A stretch of DNA of 64,000 nt from an uncultured Myxococcales bacterium. Lineage in GTDB: Bacteria > Myxococcota > UBA727 > JABDBI01. The position numbers were made by a program, and so were the translations under genes. The notes under the pieces are model-generated. The model searched no databases. It had not been told where the DNA came from and saw only the letters and a list, made by a program, of their open reading frames with translations. This document shows positions 1-32,056 of the stretch, in pieces (the stretch's first letter is position 1; every line of letters begins with the position of its first letter). Location: positions 73,611 through 137,610 of the forward strand of contig CAZBMJ010000001.1 in assembly GCA_964493205.1 (NCBI GenBank), read 5' to 3'.

Positions 1-1091
1 TTAAGCAAATCACAGAAAATCCTTTTATTAATGAAGCGTTAATAACTCCAGCACGATTATTATATAAAAATAAGCTTTTAAAATCAGAAAAAATTGAAAA
101 TGGTAGTGTCTTACTAAAGCTAGAGTCAGAAGGGGCTGAAGATAAAATTCTTGATGAAACTAAGATGAAAGAGCTTTTTGGTGATTTTAAAAGAGAGGAA
201 AATCTTTTGGGCAAAGGGGGAATGGGTAGTGTTTATAAAGTGAATTATAAAGGCCAAGATTACGCTTTAAAAATAGGTACTTACGAATATGAAGAATTAG
301 AAGTATTGCAATCTACTGGTGCTGTAGCTAAAGTTTTTGGAACTTTTAGTTATGACAATAAGCCTTGTATGCTGATGGAAATTGGGCAAAAAAGTTTAGC
401 AGATATGAATAAAAATGGTGAAAAACTTACTAACGACCAGCTCACTACTGCTATTGCTAGTTTTACGAAGCTTATTGGCGAAGAAAAAAAAATTGGCATA
501 GAAAATAAGGATATTAAACCTGATAATCTTTTACTCACTAACGATAATAAGCTAGTGGTGATTGACATTTCTTCATCAGCTGAAACTACTGGCTATACTG
601 GTACTGAAGGGAAAAAATTTGCCATTTCTTTACTTGAAAATAAAAAAGGAATTTCTTTAGCTAGTGCTAATAAATTTATAACTACAGAAAGTCTATTAAA
701 TCCTGACCAAAAAACAAAAGGAGTATATTTTGTTGCTCCTTATGTTATTGCTCATTGGAGCAAAAAAGTATGTGTTGAAATACTTCTTTCCAAAGTCAAC
801 TGTGATGCTATAAAAACTCCTAAAGATTTTTTTGACCTTATTCCACCAGAAAAACGTGAAGAGCTAGCTCAACAAAAAAATGAAGAAATTAAACAAGAAA
901 ATGAGAAAAATATACATCATAAATTTAAAAAGAAAACTCTTGATAGTAATAATTATAATGATGTTATGGGTGTTTTAGCCGAAAAATACCCTCAGTATAC
1001 TGTTGAATATTTAGTTGATGATATTTTTAATAATGAATTAGATAAAAATGATGAAGTTAATAAAGGTTTAATTGAACTTTATAATTTGTAA
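1..1091 (+). CDS. Eukaryotic-like Ser/Thr protein kinase domain protein, 5' partial (reading frame is open to the window edge); paralog of 2179..4212
   Basis: Reading frame open from nt 3 onward. GKGGMGSVYKV glycine loop, YALKI (AxK), DIKPDNLLL catalytic-loop-like and VIDIS (DFG-like) motifs. N-terminal region aligns with the kinase 2 segment ENPFVGKDFITSARPS. Last 27 aa identical to kinase 2. Confidence 0.6.
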   Translation, partial: KQITENPFINEALITPARLLYKNKLLKSEKIENGSVLLKLESEGAEDKILDETKMKELFGDFKREENLLGKGGMGSVYKVNYKGQDYALKIGTYEYEELEVLQSTGAVAKVFGTFSYDNKPCMLMEIGQKSLADMNKNGEKLTNDQLTTAIASFTKLIGEEKKIGIENKDIKPDNLLLTNDNKLVVIDISSSAETTGYTGTEGKKFAISLLENKKGISLASANKFITTESLLNPDQKTKGVYFVAPYVIAHWSKKVCVEILLSKVNCDAIKTPKDFFDLIPPEKREELAQQKNEEIKQENEKNIHHKFKKKTLDSNNYNDVMGVLAEKYPQYTVEYLVDDIFNNELDKNDEVNKGLIELYNL

Positions 1092-2178: not shown

Positions 2179-4212
2179 ATGAAAAATATTTTTAAAATTT
2201 ATTTTATTATTGTGTTGTTATTTTTTATATCTTCTTGTGTTGATGTTGGAAAATCTGTGGAAAGAAAGCAATCTGGCGCCACAGGAAGTACAGATTCTTC
2301 TGGCTCAAATAACGATGAAACACTAAAAAAATGTAGCGAGCGTTCTAAGACTGAACTTAACTGTAGTTCAGATGGTAAATGCGAACTTTATCAAAATAAC
2401 TGTGTAGATGCTTGTCATACTATAAAAGAACCGACTGCTTGTGATGCACAAAAGCCAAGATGCCAATATTATAATGGAACTTGTTTACAATATTTTAAAG
2501 CTAAAGAACAAGAAGACGCTAAAAAAGAGGCAGAAGAGAAAGCTAAAAAAGAAGCAGAAAAGAAAGCTAAAGAAGAAGCTAACAAAATAGAGATATTAGG
2601 TGAGAATAAATATTTCAAAGTTAGTAAACAAGCTGGAAAAACTAGTTATGAAATAAAAGAAGCCGTTACCAAACCTACATTTATAAAAAAAGATGGGACG
2701 TTAGTGGAAAGTTCTAGTCTAGAGACTATTTCTTATGATGATTTTTCTAAGCTATCTCATATTGCTTTGCCTGAATCACATCCATTTACTAAACAGTTTT
2801 TAGAGAATCCCTTTGTCGGTAAAGATTTTATTACTTCAGCTAGGCCGTCTATGTGGGGCAAACTTTTAGTAGCACAAAAAACTGAGAAAAACACAGTGGT
2901 GTTTAGCATTGATAAAGATGTTTCAAAGCCAGATAAAAAAGTTATTGATGAAGCTAAGCTAACAGAACTTTTTGATGATTTTAAAAAACCAGAAAATCTT
3001 TTGGGCAAAGGTGGGGAGGGCAGTGTTTATAGAGTTAAGTACAATGGCGAAGATTATGCCTTAAAAATAAATGCAGCAGAGTACGAAGATTTAGAAAAAT
3101 TGCAGTCCACTGGGGCAGTGGCCAAAGTTTTTGGGACTTTTACATATGGCAATCAGCCTTGTATGCTCATGGAAGTTGGACAAAAAACTCTAGAAGATAT
3201 GAACAAACGTGGCGAAAAACTTAGTGAAGAGCAACTAAAAACTGCTATTACAAGTTTTAAAAACCTTGTTGCAGTGCAGAAAAAACTTGGGATTAGAAAT
3301 AACGATGTTAAACCAAACAATTTTTTGCTTACTAAAGATAATAAACTTGTAGTTATTGATATAAGTTCGATGCGCACTCGAGGATATGAAAGTTCAGATA
3401 CACAGCTTTTAGCTAGATCATTATTAGAAAATAAATTAGAAATGTCACTTAGAGGTGGTTATAGCGATTTGCAAGGCGTTCCTTTTCATGATCTAGAATA
3501 TATTAATCCAGAAATAATATCTCCAGACCTTTTGGTTAAGTGGAATAAAAAAGTTTGCAGTGAATTTTTACCTAAAGAGGATAAATGTAAAGATATCAAA
3601 AATTTTGCTGAATTTTTTAAACTTATTCCAACAGAGAAACTTTATGAAATTGCTTTGAAAATTAACCAAAAGTGGAATGATGTTTCAGGTACTGTTGATC
3701 AAGATAAGAATCTTATGGCGGGGGGGGGCAAATATCGTACTGGATTACCTATGCCTTTAGTGCAAGAACTAGATAATAACGTTTGGCAACAATACTTTGA
3801 TAAAAAAGACAATGTAATAAGTGGATTTTGTCGTTCTATTATTGCCAATTCTCAATATACTGAAGAAGAAGAAAAAGAAGGCCTTACAGGGGAAAAGGCT
3901 TTTTATAAACCATTTAAAGATAAATATAAGAAAGATTGTCTAGAAGATGGGACTGAAACTAACATCCATCTTCCAGGTAGAAAAGTTACAAAATATAAGT
4001 TAACTAAAAATTTTACTTCATCAGCAGATGAGGAATTTATACAATTTATTAAGGATGCTTATTCCTATCATATTTATCAACAAACCATGGCAAAATTAAT
4101 TGAAGATTATTCTAAATATACTGTTAAATATTTAATTAGTGATATTTTTAATAATGAATTAGATAAAAATGATGAAGTTAATAAAGGTTTAATTGAACTT
4201 TATAATTTGTAA
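2179..4212 (+). CDS. Eukaryotic-like Ser/Thr protein kinase lipoprotein (signal peptide plus lipobox FFISSC, Cys-rich N-terminal module, KEAEEKAKKEAEKKAK coiled-coil-like repeat, kinase domain, long C-terminal region)
   Basis: GKGGEGSVYRV, YALKI, NDVKPNNFLL and VIDISS motifs. Paralog of the 1..1091 gene with an identical C-terminus. Contains a G9 homopolymer at 3720..3728. Confidence 0.6.
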   Translation: MKNIFKIYFIIVLLFFISSCVDVGKSVERKQSGATGSTDSSGSNNDETLKKCSERSKTELNCSSDGKCELYQNNCVDACHTIKEPTACDAQKPRCQYYNGTCLQYFKAKEQEDAKKEAEEKAKKEAEKKAKEEANKIEILGENKYFKVSKQAGKTSYEIKEAVTKPTFIKKDGTLVESSSLETISYDDFSKLSHIALPESHPFTKQFLENPFVGKDFITSARPSMWGKLLVAQKTEKNTVVFSIDKDVSKPDKKVIDEAKLTELFDDFKKPENLLGKGGEGSVYRVKYNGEDYALKINAAEYEDLEKLQSTGAVAKVFGTFTYGNQPCMLMEVGQKTLEDMNKRGEKLSEEQLKTAITSFKNLVAVQKKLGIRNNDVKPNNFLLTKDNKLVVIDISSMRTRGYESSDTQLLARSLLENKLEMSLRGGYSDLQGVPFHDLEYINPEIISPDLLVKWNKKVCSEFLPKEDKCKDIKNFAEFFKLIPTEKLYEIALKINQKWNDVSGTVDQDKNLMAGGGKYRTGLPMPLVQELDNNVWQQYFDKKDNVISGFCRSIIANSQYTEEEEKEGLTGEKAFYKPFKDKYKKDCLEDGTETNIHLPGRKVTKYKLTKNFTSSADEEFIQFIKDAYSYHIYQQTMAKLIEDYSKYTVKYLISDIFNNELDKNDEVNKGLIELYNL

Positions 4213-4427
4213 ATTTATAAAAAAGAGTGACAACTATCTTGCAAAACACCAGGAGCATAGCAACGAGGCAGTCCATCTTCATAATGCCTAGATTGCCACA
4301 TCTTTCGCTATGCTCAAGATTCGCAAAGACGCTTATGTGAAGAGCTCTTCTTTAGAAGGGCTCTCTGGGCGACGTGGAACTCTTGGGTTGACTCCTATGG
4401 AGCACACCATAGCAAACATATTTAGCT

Positions 4428-5948
4428 TTACATACTCAGTAAATATTCAACTAAAGTTCTAATGGCAAAGCCTGTGCCACCAGTACCCAAGTATGGATGT
4501 GCTTTAGAATTGGTTGCTGGGCCTGCAATGTCTAAATGAGCCCATTTGGTATCGTTGGTTATAAATTGTTGTAAAAATAATGCTGCAGTGATGCTTCCGC
4601 CCCATCTATCTCCACAATTTTTAAAGTCAGCATTGGGAGTTTTTAAGCCTTCAAGCAGATCTTGGTTTAGAGGCAGTCGCCAAAATTGCTCTCCAGTTTT
4701 TTTATCTAGGCTTAATAAACTATTAGCGAGTTCATCGTCGTTACTAAAAAGGCCTGCACATTTGGTACCTAGCGCCACCATACATGCGCCTGTAAGAGTC
4801 GCAATATCAATAATTACATCGGGTTTATCATTGTCTATAGCATAGGTGATAGCATCAGCTAATATTAAACGACCTTCGGCGTCTGTATTGCTTATTTCAA
4901 TGCTTAAGCCATTTCTAGCGATAAAAATATCTCCTGGATGATAAGCTTTTGCATCAACGCCATTTTCTACACAAACCATGTAGCCAATAATATTAAAGTT
5001 AAGATTAAGGCTGGCTATAGTTTTCATCACACCTAGCACAGCTGCAGAGCCTGACATATCAACTTTCATATCAAGCATGCCATCAGCTGGTTTTATATCG
5101 AGGCCGCCTGAATCAAAAGTTACACCTTTGCCAATTAAAACTACAGTTTTTTTACTAGCTTTTTTAGGTTTATAAATAAGCTTTATAAGTCGGGGTGGCG
5201 CGAATTCTGATGCAGCACTGGCTACAGCAAGCATCAAGTTCATTTTTTCTTTTTGCAAAGCTTTTTCATCGAGTATTTCTATGCTTAAGCCAGTTTCTTT
5301 TGCAACTTTTTGTGCTTCTTTGGCTAATTGCACAGGATTAGCAAATATGGGAGGCTCGTTGATTAAATCTCTTGCCAAAATAACGCTACTAGCAATATTT
5401 TGTCCTGAAATTAAGGCTTTTTTTAACGCATCGGTGGGAGTTTCATGAATTATGAGATCTACTGTTTCAACATGGATAGTATGTTTATCCATATCTTTCG
5501 AATGATATTTTTTAAAAGTATATGAGGCTAAAATAATACCTTCAGTTATGGCTTGAATGGCATCAAATAAAGGAACTTCAGTATTTTTTGGTAGTAGTAT
5601 TTGTAAGCTTTTAATTTGTTTTTTGTTGGCTAGTTTATATGCATGGGCACCAGCTTGCCTAAAATGATCCACTGATTGTTTATAAGCATCTCCTAAACCA
5701 ATCAGTGCGATGCTCGTATTTGTTTCTTCATTAAAAATATTGCTTACAAATGTTTGATTAAGATCCGCGAGAAAACTTTCACGTTTAGCATGCTCAAATA
5801 AGTTTGAAGAGCACCATTTGTTTATGGTTTCTGCATTATCGTATATATCAAATTCATGTTTTTTGCTTTTTAAAGCTTTTTTATTGACTAAAACCACGCT
5901 TAAATCAGTTTTTTTTAAGGTTTTTGGGTTATTAAGACTAAATTTCAT
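4428..5948 (-). CDS. pepA: Leucyl aminopeptidase (M17 family)
   Basis: NTDAEGRL M17 signature, and VGKGVTFDSGGLDIKP metal-site motif. Length 506 aa. Confidence 0.9.
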   Translation of the reverse strand: MKFSLNNPKTLKKTDLSVVLVNKKALKSKKHEFDIYDNAETINKWCSSNLFEHAKRESFLADLNQTFVSNIFNEETNTSIALIGLGDAYKQSVDHFRQAGAHAYKLANKKQIKSLQILLPKNTEVPLFDAIQAITEGIILASYTFKKYHSKDMDKHTIHVETVDLIIHETPTDALKKALISGQNIASSVILARDLINEPPIFANPVQLAKEAQKVAKETGLSIEILDEKALQKEKMNLMLAVASAASEFAPPRLIKLIYKPKKASKKTVVLIGKGVTFDSGGLDIKPADGMLDMKVDMSGSAAVLGVMKTIASLNLNFNIIGYMVCVENGVDAKAYHPGDIFIARNGLSIEISNTDAEGRLILADAITYAIDNDKPDVIIDIATLTGACMVALGTKCAGLFSNDDELANSLLSLDKKTGEQFWRLPLNQDLLEGLKTPNADFKNCGDRWGGSITAALFLQQFITNDTKWAHLDIAGPATNSKAHPYLGTGGTGFAIRTLVEYLLSM

Positions 5949-6027
5949 GAAGACCTCTTTTGCAAGTGATGATTTTATCTTTATATTCTCTAAACCAATA
6001 AAGCAAAATGTTAATAAGGATTATTAA

Positions 6028-7257
6028 ATGTTAAATGAACTGGACTCTAAATTAATAGGCGGAATTTTATTAGTCGCCGGTACTACTATTGGCGCTGCAA
6101 TGCTTGCTATGCCTATTACCACTGGTTTATTTGGCTTTTTAGGCACATTGGTTATATTGTTAGGCTGCTGGTTATTTATGTATTGGACTGCCACACTTAT
6201 TTTAGAAGCCACTTTGCATTTTGGCCAATCGGCTAGTTTTATTAGTATGGCCAAAAATACTTTAGGACCTATTGGCTTAGGCGTTACGTGGGTATCTTTT
6301 TTATTGTTTTTTTATGCCTTGATTGCAGCTTACTTAAGCGGAAGTGGTGCCATTTTTATCGATGCTATGACTGGTTTTGTGGGCGTAGAAGTTCCTTCAT
6401 GGTTTAAAATGTTACCTATGCTTATATTTTTTTCACCATTTATTTATTTTGGTTTATCAGTAGTTGATCACTTAAATCGTTACTTAATGATTGCTATGTT
6501 ATTAGCATACCTAATTATTATTATTATGCTTTATCCTCAGGCTGGTTCTGGTAAATTATTACATACTGATTGGTCTTTTTCTTTATTATCTTTTTCGGTG
6601 GTAATTACCAGTTTTGGTTTTCACTCTACCATTCCTACCTTGGTGGATTATTTAGAAAGAGATGTCAAAAAGATTAAACAGTGCTTATTCTTTGGCAGTT
6701 TAATACCATTAGCTATTTATATAATTTGGGAAGCTTTAATCTTAAGTATTGTGCCTATTTCGGGAAATTTTGGTTTGGCCTATGCTTTTAGTTACGATAT
6801 GTCTTTATCTCAAGTTCTGCAAAAGCATAACAATAATGATTTTTTAATAATTATTATCAGAGTTTTTTCGTTGTTTACTATTGTCACTTCTTTTTTAGGA
6901 GTGGCACAAGGGCTATTTGACTTTTTGAAAGACGGCGTAAAAGCTAAAAATCATCAAGGTCGTTTATTTGCTTTTATTTTAACTTTTTTACCTCCAGTTT
7001 TATTTATTTTGTTTTTTGAAAAAGGTTTTATAACTCTTTTAGAATATGCTGGGGCCTTAGTATCAATTATTTTAGGTATTATACCAATATTAATAGTCTG
7101 GCATTTGCGATATACTCATAAAAAATCTTTTGGCTATCAGGCTGTAGGGAATAAATTTGCTTTATTATTGGGCTTAGTATTCTTTGGGTTTGTTGTTTTA
7201 CTTGTGCTCTTAAAAAATATGAATTTTATAACCTTTTCTACTGCTGGTTTAATATAA
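6028..7257 (+). CDS. Aromatic amino acid (Tyr/Trp) permease, HAAAP family
   Basis: N-terminal sequence KLIGGILLVAGTTIGAAMLAMPI is typical of the TyrP/Mtr/TnaB family. Polytopic membrane protein of about 11 TM segments. Confidence 0.7.
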   Translation: MLNELDSKLIGGILLVAGTTIGAAMLAMPITTGLFGFLGTLVILLGCWLFMYWTATLILEATLHFGQSASFISMAKNTLGPIGLGVTWVSFLLFFYALIAAYLSGSGAIFIDAMTGFVGVEVPSWFKMLPMLIFFSPFIYFGLSVVDHLNRYLMIAMLLAYLIIIIMLYPQAGSGKLLHTDWSFSLLSFSVVITSFGFHSTIPTLVDYLERDVKKIKQCLFFGSLIPLAIYIIWEALILSIVPISGNFGLAYAFSYDMSLSQVLQKHNNNDFLIIIIRVFSLFTIVTSFLGVAQGLFDFLKDGVKAKNHQGRLFAFILTFLPPVLFILFFEKGFITLLEYAGALVSIILGIIPILIVWHLRYTHKKSFGYQAVGNKFALLLGLVFFGFVVLLVLLKNMNFITFSTAGLI

Positions 7258-7258
7258 A

Positions 7259-8035
7259 ATGCAAAAATTTATTACTGTTGATAAAAAAGATCATATTTTA
7301 CTTATTACTCTTAAGCGCCCTGAAGTAAGAAATGCCCTATCAACAATGCTGCTTTTAGAGTTACAAGCTATTATTTCTAGCATTAAATTAAGTGACACAC
7401 GATGTTTAATTATTACTGGTAGCGGCGATAAAGCTTTTTGTTCTGGAGCAGATTTAAAAGAACGCTCAAGTATGTCGAGTGTTGAAACATTAGATTTTTT
7501 AAACTTGATTGGCAGCACCTTTAATTTATTGGCAAACTTACCCATTCCAACCATTGCTCTTATTAATGCTGATGCATTTGGAGGGGGTTTAGAACTTGCA
7601 CTCGCTTGTGACTTAAGAATTACCCACGAGCAAGTTTTATTAGGGCTTACAGAAACAAGTTTAGGCATTATTCCAGGAGCAGGTGGTACGCAAAGATTAT
7701 CCCGATTAATAGGCGTTTCTAGGGCTTTAGATATGATTTTATGTGCTAAAAAAATTTCAGGCCAAGAAGCTTTTGATATCTCTTTGGTTAATTATTTAGT
7801 ACCAAAAGAACAATTATTGCTCTTTGCATATGAGTTAGCTCACAAAATTAGTAATAATGGGCCACTAAGTTTGGCAGCAGCTAAAAATGCTGTTATTAAT
7901 GGGCTAGACATAAGTTTAAAAGAGGGTTTAGAATTAGAGCGCAATGCTTATAAATCCATTTTATTGAGCCAAGACAGAAAAGAAGGTATTAATGCTTTTT
8001 TACAAAAGCGCCAAGCTTTATTTATAGGCAAATAG
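7259..8035 (+). CDS. Enoyl-CoA hydratase/isomerase (crotonase family)
   Basis: Crotonase fold motifs GSGDKAFCSGADL and FGGGLELALACD. Length 258 aa. Confidence 0.85.
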   Translation: MQKFITVDKKDHILLITLKRPEVRNALSTMLLLELQAIISSIKLSDTRCLIITGSGDKAFCSGADLKERSSMSSVETLDFLNLIGSTFNLLANLPIPTIALINADAFGGGLELALACDLRITHEQVLLGLTETSLGIIPGAGGTQRLSRLIGVSRALDMILCAKKISGQEAFDISLVNYLVPKEQLLLFAYELAHKISNNGPLSLAAAKNAVINGLDISLKEGLELERNAYKSILLSQDRKEGINAFLQKRQALFIGK

Positions 8036-8107
8036 AAATACTTTTATTCTTAATCCAAAAAATCCTCAGTATAGCTATACTAGTTAAATAGCTAAGGGGA
8101 GGGTTAA

Positions 8108-8206
8108 ATGAAAGAAGAAATAATAGCTGATTTAGAACTTGATATTGTAGAAGAGGCAGAACTACCTGAGTTTGATGTTCTTTTACAAAGAGAGTACGAA
8201 GGTTAG
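8108..8206 (+). CDS. 32-aa acidic peptide (MKEEIIADLELDIVEEAELPEFDVLLQREYEG), candidate precursor peptide of the downstream modification operon
   Basis: Very strong Shine-Dalgarno sequence (aaggggaggg) 5 nt upstream. Followed by a hairpin plus T-tract. Sits directly upstream of an HExxH/E1-like/YcaO/MFS operon. Not in the supplied ORF track because it is too short. Confidence 0.45.
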   Translation: MKEEIIADLELDIVEEAELPEFDVLLQREYEG

Positions 8207-8218
8207 TGTTATTTTCTA

Positions 8219-8247
8219 GGGTAGGCGCAGGTCTACCCATTTTTATT
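8219..8247 (+). terminator. Intrinsic terminator or attenuator hairpin (gggtag-gcgcaggt-ctaccc then atttttatt) between the small peptide gene and the enzyme genes
   Basis: 6-bp GC-rich stem with an 8-nt loop, followed by a T-run. Position is typical of a partial terminator that raises precursor-to-enzyme transcript ratio. Confidence 0.5.
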
Positions 8248-8258
8248 AAGGTGCATAT

Positions 8259-9194
8259 ATGCAAGATCAAAAAATATTTCATAAAGATTTAACCCTTACA
8301 AATTCTTTATTTTTTATGGATAATTTGGCATTAAGAGTTAAGAAAATTTTACTTTCTAGACTATTAGATTCTGAAATAGAATTAAAAAACCAAATAGAAT
8401 TTATGTTTAACAAAAAAATTGGCAATAGAAGTTTGTTATTGCATTCAGATATATTTTTTTGGATTAAAAGCCAAGAAAAAACTCCTCTAGAAAATATCTT
8501 AAAAAGTGTTTTAGATAGCTTTAAAACTATGCAAAATAACAAAAATAATTTTGGTTTTTTTATAAGCATTAATTATTTAAATAAAATTTTTACGAGTAAT
8601 CGTCTAGCACGAGCTCAAAGAGCAGCTTCTGAGGCAGGAACTGGAGAAATTTCTTTTAGTATTGTTGATGCTGATCTAGATTTATTCAATGAATCAATAA
8701 GGCTTTTATGTGATTATTATCCTTCTATTATGCAAGAGACAGAAAATTTTGTAAGCAATATTTGTTTTTTTGAAGGTAAGACTATTATAGGCTTTACTGA
8801 TTTTCAAAATCATGGCTCTATTTTTATGAAGTATCGATTAGTAAAAGATAATCCAATACGCCTAGCTGAAGAAATTGTTCATGAAGCAGGACATACAGTG
8901 CTTAATACTATTATGGTCAAAGATAGATTGATTTTAAATACTAAAGACGAGCGCTATAGTAGCCCGTTAAGGCAAGACTTAAGGCCGATGTTTGGCTTAT
9001 TTCATCAGTTATATGTTTTATCTAGGCTTAAAAAATTTTATATGGCCATCAGTAAAGCCCATAGCTCAGTAGCACAAAAGCAGTTACAAAAAATATGTGC
9101 GCAGCAAGATTTAGCTTTTGATATTGTTTCAAAAAATGCAAAATTTACCCCATTTGGTAAACAATTTTTTAATGAGCTTGAGTGTAATGCATGA
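8259..9194 (+). CDS. HExxH-motif protein (putative metal-dependent peptide-modifying enzyme or peptidase)
   Basis: IVHEAGHTVLNT HExxH motif. 4-nt ATGA overlap with the downstream E1-like gene indicates translational coupling. Confidence 0.4.
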   Translation: MQDQKIFHKDLTLTNSLFFMDNLALRVKKILLSRLLDSEIELKNQIEFMFNKKIGNRSLLLHSDIFFWIKSQEKTPLENILKSVLDSFKTMQNNKNNFGFFISINYLNKIFTSNRLARAQRAASEAGTGEISFSIVDADLDLFNESIRLLCDYYPSIMQETENFVSNICFFEGKTIIGFTDFQNHGSIFMKYRLVKDNPIRLAEEIVHEAGHTVLNTIMVKDRLILNTKDERYSSPLRQDLRPMFGLFHQLYVLSRLKKFYMAISKAHSSVAQKQLQKICAQQDLAFDIVSKNAKFTPFGKQFFNELECNA

Positions 9195-10219
9195 GCTTAT
9201 TAGTCTTAGCACCAAAAGTACAAATAGTGCCTCTTGATGAAAACAAAATAATATTATTTAAAAAGCATGCAAAATCTGCAAAACTAAGTATCGAACCATA
9301 TAAACATGAAATTTTTGCTAATCTTTTAGTAAGTGGTTTTAAAAAAGAAGATCTAAGTTTTTTACTGGAAAAGCCTCAAAATATTATTGATAATTTAATT
9401 CAAAAATTGCTTGAACATAAAATTTTATCTTTTAAGTCAGAAAACCATGTTTTGGCAAAATATAGAAGGCTAGAAGCTTATTTAGAAAATTCTCAATTAG
9501 AAAGCTTACAAAACAGTTCTGTTTTATTATTAGGAGTAGGCGGTCTTGGTAGTTATATTTTTGAACATTTAGTTGCCAATGGAATTAAAAATATTACTGT
9601 TCTTGATGATGATAGCGTTGAAGAAAGTAATTTATCCAGACAGACTTTGTATTCTGATGAAGATGTAGGAAACCTCAAAGTTGAGGCGGCAGCTGTATAT
9701 GCTCATAAGCATGGTATAAATATCCGCGCTTTAGCATGCAGAATTAACACTACTGATGATATACTAAAGATTATTAAAGATAATAAATTTGATTTGATCA
9801 TATCCACCATAGATGAGCCCATATGGCAAGTTACGAGATATGTTATTAACGCTGCAAAAGCAACAAATATACCAGTATTACGAGCTAATAGTAGGGCTGT
9901 GGGGCCATTTTATTTTCCTCATAAATCAGCGTGTCCTTTGTGTAAATCTTTTTATAAGGCGAAAAATATACCAAATGCTAAAAGTATTATGGAGCGTTAT
10001 AATAATGGTTTTCCAGCTCGTAAAACCTGCGCTATTAGCTATGAACTTGCCTATGTTAGTTTAATCGTCATAAAAGAGGCTATTAATTTTTTAGCCAATG
10101 TGGGTCAACTTGCCAGTTTCAATAAAGAGCTTACCTGGAATGCACAAGAACTAAGTGTTGCATCTCACAAAGTTATTGCTTGTAGTAATTGCATCGCTTG
10201 CGGTGATGTTTATGAGTGA
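9191..10219 (+). CDS. E1/ThiF/MoeB-like adenylyltransferase-family protein with a ~100-aa N-terminal extension and C-terminal CxxC...CxxCxxC cysteines (MccB/PaaA-like architecture)
   Basis: Rossmann motif LLLGVGGLGS, ThiF signature DDDSVEESNLSRQ, and C-terminal CPLCK...CSNCIACG. Confidence 0.6.
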   Translation: MSLLVLAPKVQIVPLDENKIILFKKHAKSAKLSIEPYKHEIFANLLVSGFKKEDLSFLLEKPQNIIDNLIQKLLEHKILSFKSENHVLAKYRRLEAYLENSQLESLQNSSVLLLGVGGLGSYIFEHLVANGIKNITVLDDDSVEESNLSRQTLYSDEDVGNLKVEAAAVYAHKHGINIRALACRINTTDDILKIIKDNKFDLIISTIDEPIWQVTRYVINAAKATNIPVLRANSRAVGPFYFPHKSACPLCKSFYKAKNIPNAKSIMERYNNGFPARKTCAISYELAYVSLIVIKEAINFLANVGQLASFNKELTWNAQELSVASHKVIACSNCIACGDVYE

Positions 10220-11354
10220 GATGTTTGGAGGCATAGGCACTGATAATGTTATTACTAAAAAATTTTTTCATGAAGAGTCAAGTTTTTATATTGCATACTT
10301 AGCAGCTAAATCACCTAAATTTTTAGGCAATTATAACATACCTGCAGGATATTTAGTGGGTAATGGTTTTTCTTTTAACGAAGAAGAAGCTAAAATAAAG
10401 GCTTTAGGCGAATTTATTGAGAGGTATTGTGCAGAAGTAAGTGTTCATGAAAAAGAAATTTATCGTTATTCTATAAAAGAGCTCGTTAAAAAATCTTTGG
10501 CTTTTGTTCACCCTAATACTCTTAGACCATACAAAAATTGTTCAAAATATCCAGAAATTCAAGATGATGAAGTTATCTCCTATGTTAAAGGTTATGAAGC
10601 ACTTGATAAAAAAGAAATTCTAATACCTGCCTTAGCTGCATTTTTGCCTTTTAAGCCTATTAATTTAGAAACAACTTTTTTTAGCCCCAGTGCTACTGGT
10701 TTGTCAGCTTATACTAATCAAGAACAAGCAGAATTATCAGCTTTATTAGAGGTTCAGGAAAGAAGCGATTTAATGGCCAGTTGGCGAATTAAAAACCTTA
10801 AAATTCAAAAATTGCTTACAAACGATTTGCCTGACCATATTACAAAATTTTTATATTATAATAATTTTAAGTTAAGGCTATTTGTAATTAATCAGACTGT
10901 TTTAGCTATGCTGTGTCATATAAACGATACTGGGTTAACTATTGGCTCTAAATCAGGAGTCATTAATATTATTACGATACTTGCTGCTATTAATGAAGCA
11001 ATTGCTTTGCAAATTACCATGCTAAATAAACGTGTGAGATTTAACGCTATCCCTAAAAATAGTTTAGAACATGTTATGTATGCTTATTTTAACTCTGAAA
11101 TATTTATAGAATTTTATGAGAAAAAAGTTGATGCACAACTAAGTTTTATTTCTGAAAATCAAATAAATAAAAATATATTTTTTGTGGATTTAAGTACTAA
11201 AAAAGCTAAAGAATCAGGTTGGTATTGCGCTAGATGCATAAATATAGAAGCTTTTAGCAAAGAAAATAATGCATATTATCCGCACTTAAAAAACTTTTTT
11301 GAACACGGATTCACTGAGGCTGAGTTAAACTTATTGCCGCATCCTTTTGGTTAA
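10206..11354 (+). CDS. YcaO-domain protein (ATP-dependent peptide backbone-modifying enzyme family)
   Basis: GNGFSFNEEEAKIKALGEFIERY matches the YcaO A-x-GE-x-IERY signature. C-terminus ends in LPHPFG (PxPxP-like). Start chosen at ATG 10206, overlapping the E1-like stop. The ORF track starts it at 10155. Confidence 0.55.
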   Translation: MFMSEMFGGIGTDNVITKKFFHEESSFYIAYLAAKSPKFLGNYNIPAGYLVGNGFSFNEEEAKIKALGEFIERYCAEVSVHEKEIYRYSIKELVKKSLAFVHPNTLRPYKNCSKYPEIQDDEVISYVKGYEALDKKEILIPALAAFLPFKPINLETTFFSPSATGLSAYTNQEQAELSALLEVQERSDLMASWRIKNLKIQKLLTNDLPDHITKFLYYNNFKLRLFVINQTVLAMLCHINDTGLTIGSKSGVINIITILAAINEAIALQITMLNKRVRFNAIPKNSLEHVMYAYFNSEIFIEFYEKKVDAQLSFISENQINKNIFFVDLSTKKAKESGWYCARCINIEAFSKENNAYYPHLKNFFEHGFTEAELNLLPHPFG

Positions 11355-11357
11355 AGA

Positions 11358-12539
11358 ATGAAAAAATCATTGATTATTTTAGGTGTTTCACAAACTATAT
11401 CTTCTATTAGTGTAACTATACTTATATTTGCCCTTATGATGAGCTCTTATGGTAATTCCAAAAGTATTTTAGATCTTGCTTGGGTTTATATAGCCACATC
11501 TTTGCCAGTTTTTTTAGTAGCACCTTTTTGTGGATTATTAATAGATAAGCTTAATAAAAAGCTTAATTTAGTAATAGCCGATAGTATTTGTATTTTATCA
11601 GTACTCTTTCTTTATTTTAATAACTATTTTATTTTCTTGGTAGTTTTTTTTGTACAATTAAGCATAAGTTATCAGGGCTTAACCAATCAAACTTTGGTGT
11701 CGCTATTTTTTAATAAAGATAAACTTCATATGATACTTGGGTGGATGCAATTTAAAAAAGCTTTGCAGCGTTTAGTAGCGCCAGCTTTAGGTGGATATTT
11801 ATATAATATGTTGGAATTAAAATATATTATAGCTGTTAGCATTATTAGTTTAATAATAGCTTTAATTAGTTTAATTTTTGTGAATATACCTAGTGTTAAT
11901 ATTGGAAAATTATCTAACAGCAATTTTATTAATAATGCCGGATTAAAATATATATTGAGCGATAAAAATTTATTTAATATATGCATTTTTTTTATATTTC
12001 TTAATTTTTTATCTGGTATTTATTCTGTTGTTTATACTCCCATATTATTAGCTTTTAGCGATGAACAAGCTTTGGGTTATGCATTAAGTATTGGCAGTTT
12101 GGGAATGATTTTTGCAAGTTTAACGAGCGCTCATATAAAAAGCCTTACACAAAAAAAATATCAAGCTCTTTTGCTATATGTTTTTATGAATGGCTTAAGT
12201 GAAATATTTATGGCTTCATACCCAAATTTTTGGGTCTATTCTGTGGGTTTGTTATTTGGTTGTATTACTTCTTCTTATATAGCTGTTTGTAATAATATTA
12301 TATGGCAGTCTAGTGTGCCGTTCTCTATTCAAGGTGCTACTTTTGGGGCAAGAGATTTTTTTGCTCTTGGTGCATTACCATTGGGTATGCTGATTGGTGG
12401 AATTTTTGGTGATTTTATTAAATCCAACTATGAGCTTTCTCATATATTAATCTTAACGGGAATTTTGCAGTTAATTTTAGTAGCTTTTTATAGCTATGCG
12501 TGGAGGTTTGAGCATGAAGGGGTATATAGTAATAGATAA
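11358..12539 (+). CDS. MFS-family transporter, putative exporter of the modified peptide
   Basis: About 12 predicted TM helices. Starts 4 nt after the YcaO stop. MFS exporters are typical of microcin C and pantocin-type clusters. Confidence 0.55.
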   Translation: MKKSLIILGVSQTISSISVTILIFALMMSSYGNSKSILDLAWVYIATSLPVFLVAPFCGLLIDKLNKKLNLVIADSICILSVLFLYFNNYFIFLVVFFVQLSISYQGLTNQTLVSLFFNKDKLHMILGWMQFKKALQRLVAPALGGYLYNMLELKYIIAVSIISLIIALISLIFVNIPSVNIGKLSNSNFINNAGLKYILSDKNLFNICIFFIFLNFLSGIYSVVYTPILLAFSDEQALGYALSIGSLGMIFASLTSAHIKSLTQKKYQALLLYVFMNGLSEIFMASYPNFWVYSVGLLFGCITSSYIAVCNNIIWQSSVPFSIQGATFGARDFFALGALPLGMLIGGIFGDFIKSNYELSHILILTGILQLILVAFYSYAWRFEHEGVYSNR

Positions 12540-13134
12540 TTTTTATGAGAATCCTGATTTAATTAGAGCTCAAGCTTTAGAAGCTGATTTTTCTAAAAAG
12601 CATCCAAAATATCCAGGTATTGATAGCTCGTTAATGTTTAATAATAGTGAAGCTGAAGAGAAAATTAAAAGTATTATAAAATATGATACTCAAAGAGCAA
12701 GCTATTCAGGATTTTTTCGATTATCTACTGCGGATGAATATTACAAAGAAGGACATGGTATTCATATTGATAAATATGATATTGCTGCGATAATTTATTT
12801 AGCTCAGCCTGGCCAAAATAAACAGGTAGGTACAAGCTTTTTAAAGCATAAAGCTTCTGGTCTTACTAATTTTTATAATATTAAAAGAGATCCTAATCTT
12901 AATCCTGATTGGCAGCGTTTGGATACTCAAGAAATTATGAAAATAATTGTTAACGATATGGAAAAAAATGATGCAACTTTATGGGATTTAGTAGAAGAAG
13001 TGGAGTTTAAATATAATCGCGCTGTTTTAATGAGAGGTAACTTATTTCATAAGTTGAGTAACGGCTTTGGGCAAAATGTAGAAAACGGTCGCTTAACTCA
13101 AAATTTCTTTTTAAATATACCAAGAACTTTATAA
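12514..13134 (+). CDS. Putative 2OG-Fe(II) oxygenase-like protein (candidate HxD...H facial triad: HIDKYD and LFHKLS)
   Basis: N-terminal VIDNFYENPD motif resembles putative 2OG-Fe(II) oxygenase families. The ORF track start at 12496 overlaps the MFS gene. The second Met at 12514 is preferred. Confidence 0.35.
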   Translation: MKGYIVIDNFYENPDLIRAQALEADFSKKHPKYPGIDSSLMFNNSEAEEKIKSIIKYDTQRASYSGFFRLSTADEYYKEGHGIHIDKYDIAAIIYLAQPGQNKQVGTSFLKHKASGLTNFYNIKRDPNLNPDWQRLDTQEIMKIIVNDMEKNDATLWDLVEEVEFKYNRAVLMRGNLFHKLSNGFGQNVENGRLTQNFFLNIPRTL

Positions 13135-13231
13135 AAAATTTTTTTGTTTTTCCCCAAAAATGTCTTGATTCTACTATGGTAATAAAATAGTTATTTAAAA
13201 ATTATTTTTATTATTTATATTTAGGATTTTT

Positions 13232-14425
13232 ATGTTAAAAATTAAATTATTATATTTATTATTGCTTTTACAGTTTTTTTCTTGCACTAATTATAATAAA
13301 CAAATCAAAAAAAATAATAATTTATTGTCCTTATGGCTCCCTTTTTCTTCTAAAAGAACAAAACAAGCTTATGAGCATTCTTTAATTAGAACTTCTAGGC
13401 TTAGTTCTGATTGCGGCAAAAATTGTCCTGATATTGATGTTTGGCAATATAAATACAAAAATATAACTAGTGATAAACCTATTTCTACTCAAAAAAAATA
13501 CTGGAAATCACCTAATGAAGCTCGAGTCATAGCTATAAGTTTATTTGGAACCAATGAGTTTTATTATAATGCTTTGCTGCAATATATAGATAGTTTTGCT
13601 TATATTAAAAATATTAATAATATAAAAGATAAAATTTGGGGTTATGAAACGTTTACTGTTAGAGTTTATGTTCCCAAACGAAATCCTAAATTTTTAAAAG
13701 AATTAGGGGTGATTGGAGGCGGCTTAGAGCAGAAAAAAATAGATAAATTATTAGATTTAGGATGCGAAATAGCATTTGTTGATAATAAATTATCTGAGGC
13801 TAAGAAAGATGCTACTTTTTGGCGATTTATGATTACTCAAGAAGCCATGTTAGAAGGCGAAAAAATTAGATATCTACTTAGAGATGCAGACAGTATTTTA
13901 ACTGCTGGTGAAATGTACACAGTTGCCGATTGGATCAATAGCCATAAAAAATATCATAGAATGCATACCATACCCATTTGTATAGGTCCTTTAACGGCAA
14001 GTATTTGGGGGGGGACTCATAGCGAAAAGGGTGATTTTAGTGATTTTTATGACTCGGTAAAAAATTACCCTTATAGATTTGAATACGGCGATGATGAATT
14101 ATTTTTAAGAGACATTATTTGGCCAAAAATAAAATTTTCTGGTTCTGTTCTTACTCATCATTTTGATCGTGATTCATATATAACTAAAATAGCCAACCCT
14201 TATAAAAATAGTTGCGAAGAGCCTACACAGGATTTTTGCTTACAACTAAATCCTAATTCTCAGTGTGAAGATCGTATTTTGCCCAACGTAAAAAATTTAC
14301 AAGGTGCCGTAGAAGCTTTAGGATTAAGAAAAACCTTAAAAGAGTTATCAGAAAAGCACCCAGAGTTTTTTGATCTAGATTTAGCCAACAAAGATAGAAA
14401 ATTTGTTTACGAAACATTTAGGTAA
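13232..14425 (+). CDS. Hypothetical lipoprotein (signal peptide, lipobox FFSC)
   Basis: N-terminal MLKIKLLYLLLLLQFFSCTN. No motif recognised. Confidence 0.5.
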   Translation: MLKIKLLYLLLLLQFFSCTNYNKQIKKNNNLLSLWLPFSSKRTKQAYEHSLIRTSRLSSDCGKNCPDIDVWQYKYKNITSDKPISTQKKYWKSPNEARVIAISLFGTNEFYYNALLQYIDSFAYIKNINNIKDKIWGYETFTVRVYVPKRNPKFLKELGVIGGGLEQKKIDKLLDLGCEIAFVDNKLSEAKKDATFWRFMITQEAMLEGEKIRYLLRDADSILTAGEMYTVADWINSHKKYHRMHTIPICIGPLTASIWGGTHSEKGDFSDFYDSVKNYPYRFEYGDDELFLRDIIWPKIKFSGSVLTHHFDRDSYITKIANPYKNSCEEPTQDFCLQLNPNSQCEDRILPNVKNLQGAVEALGLRKTLKELSEKHPEFFDLDLANKDRKFVYETFR

Positions 14426-14428
14426 AGT

Positions 14429-16669
14429 ATGATTAAATCAAGATGGTTTTACGATATATCTTCTAGCATAACAGTATTTTTAGTCGCATTGCCCTTGTGC
14501 CTAGGTATTGCTCTTGCTTCTAATGCTTCTTTAGTTTCAGGTATTTTATCAGGCGTTGTAGGAGGTATAGTTGTAGGGTTTCTAAGTGGTTCTCATGTAA
14601 GTGTCAGTGGCCCTTCTGCAGCTCTTGCTTCTATTATTGTTACACAAATTCTTGTTCTAGGATCGTTTGAAGCATTTTTAATAGCTTTAATTATTGCAGG
14701 ATTAATCCAAATAATAATGGGCTTATTTAAAATTGGTTTTATTGCAGCTTTTTTCCCAAACAGCGTCATTAAAGGCCTACTTTTTTCTGTTGGTGTAATT
14801 ATAGTATTAAAACAGTTGCCCCATTTAGTTGGTTTAGATTTAGATTATGAAGGCGACATGTCTTTTTGGCAACTTGATCATGAAAATACTTTTAGTGAAA
14901 TTGTTAAAATGTTTTCTTTTTTTCATACCGGTTGCTTAATAGTAGGTATGTCTTCTTTAGCTTTTATAGTGGCCTGGAATAAGTTTACTTTTTCTAAAAA
15001 AGTTAAAATTCCTTCTGCTTTATTGGTTGTATTATTTGGTAGTTTTTTAGGTTTTTGCTTGCCTTATATAAATAAGTGGTGGTTTATTGACGCAGGGCAC
15101 TTAGTTCAAGTGCCGTTAGTAACCAGCCTACATGATATAAAAAATTTTTTTATTTTACCAAATTTTATTCACTTGAATAACCCAGAAGTTTATATAGCAG
15201 GTTTTACTTTGGCGTTAGTTGCATCTTTGGAAACTTTATTAAATTTAGAAGCTGTTGATAAAATAGATCCAAAAGGTCGTAAGTCTCCTGCTAATAGAGA
15301 GTTAATAGCCCAGGGGATAGGAAATTTAGTTTTAGGCTTTATAGGTGGCTTGCCAGTGACTTCGGCAGTTATTCGTAGCTCTGTTAATATTAATGCTAAA
15401 GCGCAAAGTAAATTATCAGCTATTCTTCATGGTTTTTTTTTGCTATTTTGTGTGACTTTATTGCCTCAAGTATTAAATTATATTCCACTTTCTTGTTTGG
15501 CAGCTATATTGATAGTTACAGGGGCTAAACTTGCTAATTTATCGGTTATAAAACAAATATGGCAGGAAGGTTTAAACCAATTTTTACCATTTTTAGTAAC
15601 TTTTTTAGCTATTATGTTTTCTGATTTATTAATGGGTGTACTTATTGGCTTAGGAACAAGCATATTTTTTATTTTGAAAAGTAATTTAAAAACGCCTGTT
15701 AAAATCTGTACTGAAAATCACCCCTCAGGTGAGCGCAAGCGTATGATTTTATCTAATCAGGTAAGCTTTTTAAATCGTGCATCTTTAAATAGAGCTCTTG
15801 ATAGCATTACTAATGGTAGTCATTTAGTAATTGATGCAACAGAGACTGATTATATAGATGCTGATGTTCTAGATTTAATAAAAGATTTTAAAGATAGTGA
15901 ATCTCAAAAAAGAGACATAGTAATAAGTTTAATAGGTTTTAAAGATTCTTACGATATAGAAAATTTTATTCAATATGAAGAGCATATTACCCATGAACTA
16001 CAAAAAAATCTTACTCCATTAGAAGTGCTTGATATTATTAAAAAAGGGAATGATAGGGTTATTAAAGGACAAAAACTTAAGCGTGATCTTAACCGCCAAA
16101 TACAAGGAACTAAAGAAGGTCAATTTCCTATGGCAGTGGTTTTAAGTTGTATCGATTCAAGAGTGCCCGTTGAACTTATTTTTGATTTAGGCATAGGTGA
16201 TGCTTTTAGTGTTCGTATGGCGGGCAATGTGATAAGTCCTAAAGTATTAGGAAGCTTAGAATTTTCTTGTGCGGTTGCCAAAGCAAAACTTATTGTTGTC
16301 ATGGGCCATACCAAATGTGGGGCAGTTGCTGCTGCAATTGAATGCTTAAAAAATAACCAATCTATTGAGGAAAAAACAGGATGCTATAATTTAGGCGGTA
16401 TAATTAATGATATTCAAAAAGTTATTGATAAGCCTTTAATTAACCAGAGTGATGCTTACCTCAATGAAGTAGTGAAATCTAATGTTTTGCAGGCGATTCA
16501 TGATATAAAAAATAAAAGTTTTGTGCTTAATAACTTACTCAAACAAAATAATATAGCTATAGTTGGTTGTATTTATGATGTATCAAGTGGCAAAGTGGAA
16601 TTTTTAGATTTAGCAAAAAATAGATTATTTTCTTCCGCTAAACAAGAGCTATTAGAATTGCTTAATTAA
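14429..16669 (+). CDS. SulP-family anion transporter with STAS domain, fused to a C-terminal beta-carbonic anhydrase
   Basis: SulP membrane domain about 420 aa. C-terminal CIDSRVP and VMGHTKCGAV are the beta-carbonic anhydrase zinc ligand motifs (CxDSR and HxxC). Confidence 0.7.
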   Translation: MIKSRWFYDISSSITVFLVALPLCLGIALASNASLVSGILSGVVGGIVVGFLSGSHVSVSGPSAALASIIVTQILVLGSFEAFLIALIIAGLIQIIMGLFKIGFIAAFFPNSVIKGLLFSVGVIIVLKQLPHLVGLDLDYEGDMSFWQLDHENTFSEIVKMFSFFHTGCLIVGMSSLAFIVAWNKFTFSKKVKIPSALLVVLFGSFLGFCLPYINKWWFIDAGHLVQVPLVTSLHDIKNFFILPNFIHLNNPEVYIAGFTLALVASLETLLNLEAVDKIDPKGRKSPANRELIAQGIGNLVLGFIGGLPVTSAVIRSSVNINAKAQSKLSAILHGFFLLFCVTLLPQVLNYIPLSCLAAILIVTGAKLANLSVIKQIWQEGLNQFLPFLVTFLAIMFSDLLMGVLIGLGTSIFFILKSNLKTPVKICTENHPSGERKRMILSNQVSFLNRASLNRALDSITNGSHLVIDATETDYIDADVLDLIKDFKDSESQKRDIVISLIGFKDSYDIENFIQYEEHITHELQKNLTPLEVLDIIKKGNDRVIKGQKLKRDLNRQIQGTKEGQFPMAVVLSCIDSRVPVELIFDLGIGDAFSVRMAGNVISPKVLGSLEFSCAVAKAKLIVVMGHTKCGAVAAAIECLKNNQSIEEKTGCYNLGGIINDIQKVIDKPLINQSDAYLNEVVKSNVLQAIHDIKNKSFVLNNLLKQNNIAIVGCIYDVSSGKVEFLDLAKNRLFSSAKQELLELLN

Positions 16670-16771
16670 CGCTGTCAGCGCGTAATTTCATTTTATTACC
16701 CAATATGCTTTACAAAAAAATAATAATGAATATTAATATGAAATTTGTAAAATTTTAATTAAGAGAAGAAA

Positions 16772-31321: not shown

Positions 31322-32056
31322 TTGAGAGTTTGCTTTATGTGTAATATAAAATCTTTAATTATGTTCTTTTTAGCCTTATTGCTTATAGGTTCTTGCAGTT
31401 CTTCTGTTAAACGGGATAAACCTGACTTTTTTGCTTCCTATAATGCTTCAGAAACATCAGAAGAACAGCCGGCAGCAAGTGATGCTGAAGCGGTAGAAGA
31501 AAAAAAAGAAGAAATATCTGAAGAAAAGCCAGAAGAAGTCCAAAAGCAAGATGAAAAAGAGGAAAAAAAAATTTCAAATTCTCCATCTTTAGGAAGCGAT
31601 AGAAGAAGCCGTGATAATAGTCCTATTATAGAACCACCAGAAAATTCATTTTTACCAGATGAAGATGGCCCCGGATTACCACTACCTATTCCCTTTGATG
31701 ACGAATTGGCTCCAATAGATGTAATACCTAATTTTGGTTCAAGATTTGCAATTTGTGGCAACGGAAAGAGGGAGCCATCAGAACAATGTGATGATGGAGA
31801 TGACGATAATAATAATGGTTGTAATATTATATGCAAGCTACCTTCTTGTGGTAATGGTTTAACTGAAAAAGGTGAAACTTGCGATGATGGGGCTAACGAA
31901 TCAGGAGATGGATGCTCTGCTACGTGCCAGTTAGAATATTGTGGTAATGGAACTATAGATTCGAAAGGAGAGGATAAAGAACAGTGTGATGATGGTAATA
32001 GAAAAAATAATGATGGTTGTTCTATTATTTGCACATACGATACTATTATACCATGA
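31322..32056 (+). CDS. Lipoprotein with acidic linker and three tandem Myxococcus-type cysteine-rich repeats (CGNG...E-x-CDDGN...DGC...C)
   Basis: Lipobox LLIGSC. Three repeats of about 37 aa matching the Myxococcus cysteine-rich repeat pattern. Confidence 0.6.
   Translation: MRVCFMCNIKSLIMFFLALLLIGSCSSSVKRDKPDFFASYNASETSEEQPAASDAEAVEEKKEEISEEKPEEVQKQDEKEEKKISNSPSLGSDRRSRDNSPIIEPPENSFLPDEDGPGLPLPIPFDDELAPIDVIPNFGSRFAICGNGKREPSEQCDDGDDDNNNGCNIICKLPSCGNGLTEKGETCDDGANESGDGCSATCQLEYCGNGTIDSKGEDKEQCDDGNRKNNDGCSIICTYDTIIP

Follow-up and report, generated by a model that had tools for sequence, protein, structure and literature searches.

A poly-G tract late in the gene of a predicted lipoprotein kinase, a candidate contingency locus in an AT-rich uncultured bacterium

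Poly-G phase variation is textbook biology, and a run of nine G inside a reading frame of an AT-rich uncultured bacterium raises the question of whether a switch of this kind operates there or whether the run is incidental. The stretch of DNA analysed here, referred to as the window, comprises 64,000 nt with a G+C content of 30.8%. On its forward strand, exactly nine G occupy positions 3720-3728 with a C on each side (..ATGGC GGGGGGGGG CAAATAT..), and positions 3710-3735 read ATCTTATGGC GGGGGGGGG CAAATA. The tract, hereafter G9, is located at 76% (relative position 0.76) of an ORF of the same strand (2179..4212, 677 aa) whose product is called kinase 2. It consists of the last base of GCG (Ala514), the codons GGG (Gly515) and GGG (Gly516) and the first two bases of GGC (Gly517). 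The preliminary description of this DNA had placed an in-frame G9 coding for Ala-Gly-Gly-Gly at these positions inside kinase 2, and direct readout of the sequence confirms it. The main reading proposed here, to which a probability of roughly 0.45 is attached, is that G9 is a plausible candidate contingency locus corresponding to the C-terminal truncation type of translational phase variation.

The first point to settle is the reality of the tract. Some sequencing platforms are error-prone at homopolymers and the source is apparently a metagenome-assembled genome, in which the true tract could be shorter, interrupted or of another length. Nevertheless, nine G keep the 677-aa ORF intact, and the 160 residues encoded downstream are conserved across the protein family. 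Moreover, a contig assembled from another sample (ENA ERZ22158298, a SPAdes node with a coverage of 2.7, here L017) matches 546 nt of the window, positions 3672-4217, at 100% identity and carries the same G9, at its nt 49-57, within the same flanks. Since this independent assembly contains an identical tract, G9 is not considered an assembly artefact. With an intact ORF and two concordant assemblies, the artefact explanation was rejected as largely refuted and deserves hardly any weight.

The same contig is the only other assembly in which the kinase 2 locus was found, and it derives from nearly the same strain as the window, which makes it a weak test of variability. Both assemblies have nine G, i.e. 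no variation in tract length was observed between these two nearly identical strains. The combination of a protein search, a GTDB scan, a JGI scan and a DNA pattern retrieved only the exact NCBI protein, one homologue at 47% identity and L017. JGI metagenome contigs, interrogated with a protein pattern and with a degenerate DNA pattern flanking the tract, provided no further copy. No truncated or frameshifted kinase 2 was found among the 5.8 billion protein clusters searched, in which the cluster of kinase 2 has one member. Exact look-ups of kinase 2, of the G8 protein described below and of aconitase in a contig index gave no match. A Logan contig of the same strain, from run SRR12762304, is 100% identical to window positions 4791-17257; it ends inside pepA at position 4791, short of kinase 2.

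Kinase 2 (2179..4212, + strand) is best described as a putative lipoprotein-anchored, eukaryote-like Ser/Thr kinase belonging to a small unannotated family. Pfam, alignment, an AlphaFold2 model, Foldseek and the lipobox all contribute to this assignment. Its N-terminus, MKNIFKIYFIIVLLFFISS followed by C, fits the strict lipobox pattern (PROSITE PS51257-type), and the protein is therefore predicted to be exported and lipid-anchored. The lipobox region (residues 1-20) is followed by a low-confidence segment extending to about residue 100, a KAKE-rich helix (102-135), a beta-rich domain (about 138-245), the kinase core (about 270-500), a disordered linker (503-524) and a helical/hairpin C-terminal domain (525-677). 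The Pfam Pkinase profile (PF00069) matched residues 273-395 with an E-value of 1.8e-7 and a score of 31.3 bits, just under the 31.7 cut-off, and this match covers only the N-lobe up to the DFG motif; the neighbouring paralogue, kinase 1, scored 33.6 bits, above the cut-off. As in other eukaryote-like Ser/Thr kinases (PF00069), a Gly-rich loop (GKGGEGSVY), a VAIK-type Lys296, the Asp376-x-Lys-x-x-Asn381 motif and a conserved DFG-equivalent Asp394 can be recognized. In a 23-sequence alignment of the family, G276, G278, G281, K296, D376, K378, N381 and D394 are invariant or nearly so. The AlphaFold2 model, built from a shallow 5-sequence alignment, has a mean pLDDT of 71.7 and a pTM of 0.64; its predicted fold matches protein kinases in Foldseek with a probability of 1.00, including human MYT1, Nek7 and CDK2. 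Unlike the other PF00069 kinases, kinase 2 combines an N-terminal lipobox with a divergent C-lobe and a family-specific C-terminal domain.

Relatives of kinase 2 are few. When 1.84 billion representatives were searched exhaustively with HMMER, 66 of them were recovered, 40 at E<1e-10, and the only annotation that these about 40 clusters have in the databases searched is a precomputed Pfam PF00069 hit. Profile searching with the full family alignment was overwhelmed, most likely by the low-complexity region rich in Lys and Glu, and with a trimmed alignment it returned P0006 and P0007 only. A strict lipobox is present in 13 of 22 aligned members.

Where G9 falls in this architecture matters for what a change in its length would do. 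It is located in the disordered, hypervariable linker (aa 503-524, encoded at 3685..3750, + strand), for which pLDDT is below 50. This linker lies between two conserved motifs, 'SGT.D' and 'Y.T.LP.P', and contains the lineage-specific stretch QDKNLMAGGGK. Across the 23 aligned family members, the inter-motif stretch varies from no residue to about 12 residues and shows no sequence conservation, the version of kinase 2 being among the longest. Many family members have a Gly directly in front of the conserved Tyr. Y519 and L523, at the end of the linker, are nearly invariant. Because the tract is located in an unconstrained disordered segment, as judged from the model and the alignment, it probably costs little or nothing at the protein level.

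Downstream of the linker, the C-terminal domain (aa 525-677, encoded at 3751..4212, + strand) appears conserved and folded according to the alignment and the model. P526, C551, Y583, F612, F620, D626 and A627 are nearly invariant among the 23 sequences, and mean pLDDT over 10-residue blocks is mostly 73-93, with one dip to 52 near the low-confidence residues 595-599. The last ~70 nt of the gene are near-identical to the 3' end of the kinase 1 gene (repeats D2 and D4). Kinase 1, the tandem paralogue located upstream on the same strand (3..1091, listed as 165..1091), was delimited by alignment and ORF inspection: its frame is already open at base 3, continues past the window's left edge and aligns, upstream of the listed start, with the invariant N-P-F motif of the family. 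The two proteins are 57% identical in the kinase core. Kinase 1 has neither the linker nor the G tract, and it also misses part of the C-terminal domain.

The consequences of a change of one G were simulated. With eight G, translation continues as ...MAGGANIVLDYLCL*, i.e. 12 out-of-frame codons before a stop, giving a product of 526 aa; with ten G, it continues as ...MAGGGQISYWITYAFSARTR*, with 16 out-of-frame codons and a product of 532 aa. Either variant loses the 160 native C-terminal residues, 24% of the protein, the loss beginning at Gly517 for G8 and at Lys518 for G10. The preliminary description had anticipated a truncation of about 165 aa that would include the tail common to kinase 1 and kinase 2, and the simulation agrees, the tail being included in the loss. 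The predicted outcome of a change of one G is a truncated protein that retains the kinase core and not a null. Termination-reinitiation at Met525, a few nucleotides before the stop of the -1 frame, was envisaged and set aside, since no Shine-Dalgarno motif was noticed and a reinitiated protein would be devoid of signal peptide. No sigma-70-like promoter or terminator of note was detected around the kinase 2 gene.

The same two short products could also arise with an unchanged DNA sequence. Slippage of RNA polymerase or frameshifting of the ribosome on G9 would yield full-length and truncated kinase 2 in fixed proportions from a single genotype. Homopolymers of 9 or more can indeed cause transcriptional slippage, as described for the poly(A) tracts of Buchnera (cited in PMC2831843). 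Both shifted frames of kinase 2 end quickly and would yield a defined short isoform. However, known cases of productive transcriptional slippage involve A/T runs; neither a stimulatory stem-loop nor a slippery heptamer was seen, no long alternative-frame ORF lies downstream and comparative support is absent. An action at the RNA or translation level is thus regarded as improbable.

How exceptional is such a run at this base composition? Across the whole window, G/C runs reach a length of 6 at just three places, the G9 at 3720, a G8 at 14007 and a G6 at 53217, and none of them is a C run. Runs of nine A or T (A9/T9) are found at 484, 2130, 15433 and 17663. If bases were drawn independently, about 0.006 G or C runs of 9 or more would be expected in 64 kb, and shuffles preserving dinucleotides gave a mean of 0.15 G8 matches against the 3 overlapping matches observed. 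The null model judged the fairest is codon-aware: the proteins are kept and synonymous codons are resampled according to the usage of the window's own ORFs. Under this model a window is expected to hold 0.02 runs of at least nine bases and 0.16 runs of at least eight; the two runs of at least eight that are present correspond to a Poisson P of about 0.012. The codons themselves are uncommon, GGG being the rarest Gly codon of the window (11.5%) and GCG the rarest Ala codon (7%), and the G9 and G8 tracts are the only two places where GGG-GGG codon pairs occur. In addition, prokaryotic coding genes generally contain fewer poly-G/C runs than expected (PMC2831843), so G9 calls for an explanation.

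These numbers must be set against the way the tract was chosen. G9 was noticed post hoc, for standing out, and extrapolation of the codon-aware null to a genome of 1-2 Mb predicts roughly 0.3-0.6 chance G9 runs. One chance G9 across a whole genome is thus not very unlikely. The run had been called statistically striking; it is indeed unusual for one window (0.02 expected), but since 0.3-0.6 chance occurrences are predicted per genome, the wording was overstated once this look-elsewhere effect is taken into account. G9 is unusual for a single window, and the rarity statistic alone is suggestive, not compelling. No other classical contingency repeat (di-, tetra- or pentanucleotide) was found in the window.

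Comparison with organisms in which switching has been measured is more favorable to a switch. In Campylobacter, whose genomes have about 30% GC, a working cut-off of 7 or more is used for poly-G/C tracts and tracts of 8 or more were shown to vary; G9 is the modal length (53%), followed by G10 (26%) (PMC6321876). Reporter assays in this genus revealed high switching rates for one G8 and one G9 tract (PMC3401435). The tract of kinase 2 thus has the type and the length of a hypermutable repeat (poly-G/C of 7-8 or more; PMC6321876; PMC3401435). The resemblance with the poly-G/C genes of Campylobacter jejuni, such as cj1139 (G8) and cj0031 (G9), extends to the low GC content of about 30%, the intragenic poly-G on the coding strand with a modal length of 9, the nearby stop after a slip of one base and the density of tracts, two per 64 kb in the window being of the same order. 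In contrast, switching in C. jejuni was measured and tract length varies between isolates, whereas the present tract is a candidate. The C. jejuni phasome is also defined and composed mostly of surface-glycan and flagellar-modification genes, whereas the gene concerned here encodes a kinase and carries the tract late. In Neisseria meningitidis, hmbR and hpuA likewise possess a poly-G inside the ORF that turns an envelope-associated protein ON or OFF, a role for which kinase 2 is only a candidate. These genes are unrelated to kinase 2 and well documented, with length variation among isolates, in a mismatch-repair-proficient host of about 52% GC (PMC3786947). No precedent for a phase-variable Ser/Thr protein kinase was found in the literature.

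The late position of the tract is the main departure from an ordinary switch. Homopolymers that serve as ON/OFF switches tend to occur in the first fifth of genes and are least expected in the internal three-fifths (PMC2823697), where G9 is found, at a distance from the 5' end that counts against a switch. Late tracts have nevertheless been described under the name of 'C-terminal phase variation' in Helicobacter canadensis (Snyder et al. 2010, PMC2823697). There, a G tract is found late in the frame, as in kinase 2, and slippage alters or removes the C-terminus and does not abolish synthesis. The H. canadensis tracts are longer (G10-G17), mostly concern a few terminal residues and show length heterogeneity among reads, whereas 160 residues (24%) are at stake in kinase 2 (PMC2823697).

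Slippage at the DNA level was adopted as the mechanism because G9 tracts are slippage-prone wherever they have been measured. Slipped-strand mispairing during replication would add or remove one G, and the resulting frameshift would lead to a stop 12 or 16 codons further and to a protein of 526 or 532 aa. The truncated kinase 2 would keep the signal peptide, the lipid anchor and the kinase core and would lose the folded 153-aa domain (aa 525-677) together with the tail that it has in common with the paralogue. Another slip would bring back nine G. We infer that slippage may take place at a useful rate in this organism and that the truncated protein would be non-functional or differently functional. 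Maintenance of the tract by selection is likewise a candidate proposition.

Homologues give this contingency-locus reading little comparative help. DNA could be read for three of them, P0002 (47% identical), P0006 (about 50%) and P0007 (41%), the first two spanning 47-52%. In the three genes G/C runs do not exceed 4, and runs of at least 7 are absent from the roughly 40 kb of non-redundant sequence in the corresponding contigs (24-37% GC). Since both the genes and the contigs are devoid of them, tracts are not a family trait. In P0006, the closest homologue, the Gly-Gly at the position of the tract is encoded by GGT GGT. No close relative of the window's organism was found among GTDB species representatives, its PolA having a best match there of 39% identity. 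The window contains no rRNA.

The second long run of the window offers another comparison. The G8 (14007..14014, + strand) reads TGG GGG GGG, i.e. Trp-Gly-Gly, and is located about 10 kb from G9 in an ORF (13232..14425) whose 397-aa product has a signal peptide, a loose lipobox and no family match. Both long runs are thus G on the coding strand of signal-peptide genes, in a 64-kb window where strict lipoboxes are found in 8 of the 42 ORFs in any case. The G8 was compared with three metagenomic relatives at 97% nucleotide identity (L003, L004 and L005), two of which have it interrupted: L003 and L004 read GGGGAGGG, a synonymous GGG>GGA change that leaves the protein unchanged. The tract is kept in L005 and also in L015. 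Populations at 97% identity are represented in JGI 3300005989, ERZ27257526 and ERZ3602259. The three lineages bearing this locus are star-like and lack an outgroup, and the direction of the change is therefore not polarised. The interruption would fit neutral turnover: with two synonymous sites, a single change is the amount that neutrality predicts at this divergence, and the G8 accordingly provides no evidence for or against selection to keep the tract.

Taken as a whole, the data leave two explanations for G9 that are judged about equally likely, the contingency switch and an incidental tract. According to the latter, a Gly-rich linker would have come by chance to be written in G-ending codons, perhaps through an in-frame slippage duplication of GGG; the run would be young or drifting, unselected and without regulatory role, and occasional frameshift mutants would be purged. 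The linker is the most indel-prone and least conserved part of the protein, in a family where Gly before the conserved Tyr is common. The expected chance occurrences per 1-2 Mb genome and the post hoc choice of the tract point the same way, as do the homologues and contigs without tracts, the synonymous turnover of the G8 expected under neutrality, the nine G of both assemblies and the late position in the CDS. However, three consecutive rare G-ending codons are unlikely at 31% GC (about 1e-3 for this peptide with the codon frequencies of the window), a second long G run is present 10 kb away (P about 0.012 for two) and coding sequence is normally poor in poly-G runs (PMC2831843). The mutational load of a G9 should also favor its synonymous interruption unless something maintains the tract.

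The contingency switch is favored by an exact and in-frame G9 in which a gain or loss of one base leads to quick stops, by the rare codons of which it is built and the second long run, and by its location in an unconstrained linker upstream of a conserved and confidently folded domain. Contingency genes are also typically of the kind seen here, a predicted lipoprotein gene next to a tandem paralogue. The suggestion of a phase-variation switch made in the preliminary description hence holds as far as length, base and strand are concerned, which fit validated switches, and is weakened by the identical G9 of both assemblies, by the homologues without tract and by the late position.

If the tract switches, the presence of the lipoprotein kinase would be alternately useful and harmful, a signature of exposure to hosts, prey, phages or immune-like pressures, and poly-G contingency loci would exist in an uncultured lineage beyond the classic pathogens. 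The new elements, if confirmed, would be the lineage, with its PolA at 39% identity to the best match among GTDB representatives, and the kinase target. A broader proposal, considered unlikely, is that this AT-rich uncultured lineage uses Campylobacter-style poly-G tracts, G9 toggling the C-terminal domain of a surface-anchored kinase and G8 switching a neighbouring secreted protein. If true, poly-G phasomes would reach into a new lineage, and the kinase would be the first exported one to be phase-variable. Should the tract be incidental, it would show that an isolated long homopolymer says little by itself when the genome is low in GC. The kinase family itself, with about 40 clusters that are apparently exported since most members carry lipoboxes, may outlast the tract in interest.

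The two kinase genes of the window, the tandem paralogues kinase 1 (window 3..1091, + strand) and kinase 2 (2179..4212, + strand), are about 79% identical in their core DNA (repeat pair 144-443 versus 2938-3237). Towards the 3' end they share an exact 22-nt repeat and, as judged by the overlap in the ENA contig L017, their last ~70 nt (1028-1096 versus 4149-4217) are near-identical. On the sequence, this likeness of the 3' ends suggests gene conversion or else that the C-terminal tail (..IFNNELDKNDEVNKGLIELYNL) is strongly constrained. The same stretch is involved in the structure of L017 (ERZ22158298), whose nucleotides 1-1229 match window positions 3672-4217 followed by 996-1779. In this contig, the 3' end of kinase 2, including its G9 tract, abuts the DUF4160/DUF2442 genes, which in the window come after kinase 1. 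The junction is either a recombinant arrangement with a single kinase gene or a misjoin over the ~70 nt of identical paralogue 3' ends. A second ENA contig, L016, is 99.9% identical to window positions 4593-7470 beyond its first 100 nt, which are GC-rich, unrelated to the window and probably a chimeric contig end. The junctions of that ENA assembly should therefore be read with caution. The DUF4160 (80 aa) and DUF2442 (107 aa) genes themselves form a small overlapping pair between the kinase paralogues (1175-1722).

Other homopolymers were observed in the window. A T9 run (2130-2138) precedes the start codon of kinase 2 by 41-49 nt; the region upstream of the DUF4160 gene (1137-1177) is similar to that of kinase 2 and lacks the T9. 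An A9 run (484-492) is found inside kinase 1, in the codons GAA GAA AAA AAA ATT. The AT-rich window has many runs of this kind (A9 and T9 occur three times each), so both may be without meaning. A second G tract, a G8 (14007-14014, + strand) read as TGG GGG GGG (Trp-Gly-Gly), is located within the ORF 13232..14425, which codes for a 397-aa product with a signal peptide and for which no family match was found. Among relatives' sequences with 97% identity, the G8 is intact in two (L005 and L015) and broken by a synonymous GGG>GGA change in two others (L003 and L004).

Further along the window, a co-directional cluster (8259-12539) encodes a 311-aa protein of unknown function, a ThiF-family protein, a YcaO-domain protein and an MFS transporter, followed by DUF6445; in layout it is similar to a small modification cluster of the azoline/RiPP or thioamide type. 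A 1381-aa ORF (16772-20917) with many short A-rich tandem repeats sits where the window is richest in AT (23% GC) and gave no family match. Of two lipobox proteins (31322-32056 and 49820-52648), one carries DUF4215, a Myxococcus-type cysteine-rich repeat, and the other FG-GAP and disintegrin repeats. Together with the strict lipobox present in 8 of the 42 large ORFs, these proteins hint, from sequence features, at a Bdellovibrionota/Myxococcota-like affinity.

The family that includes both kinases and their homologues P0002 and P0006-P0029 comprises about 40 clusters at E<1e-10. Its members, 470-790 aa long, share an architecture in which an N-terminal lipobox and a beta-rich domain are followed by a kinase core of eukaryote-like type and, at the C-terminus, by a conserved helical domain. 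They are thus predicted to be protein kinases that are exported and lipid-anchored, and this predicted export raises the question of the source of their ATP and substrates.
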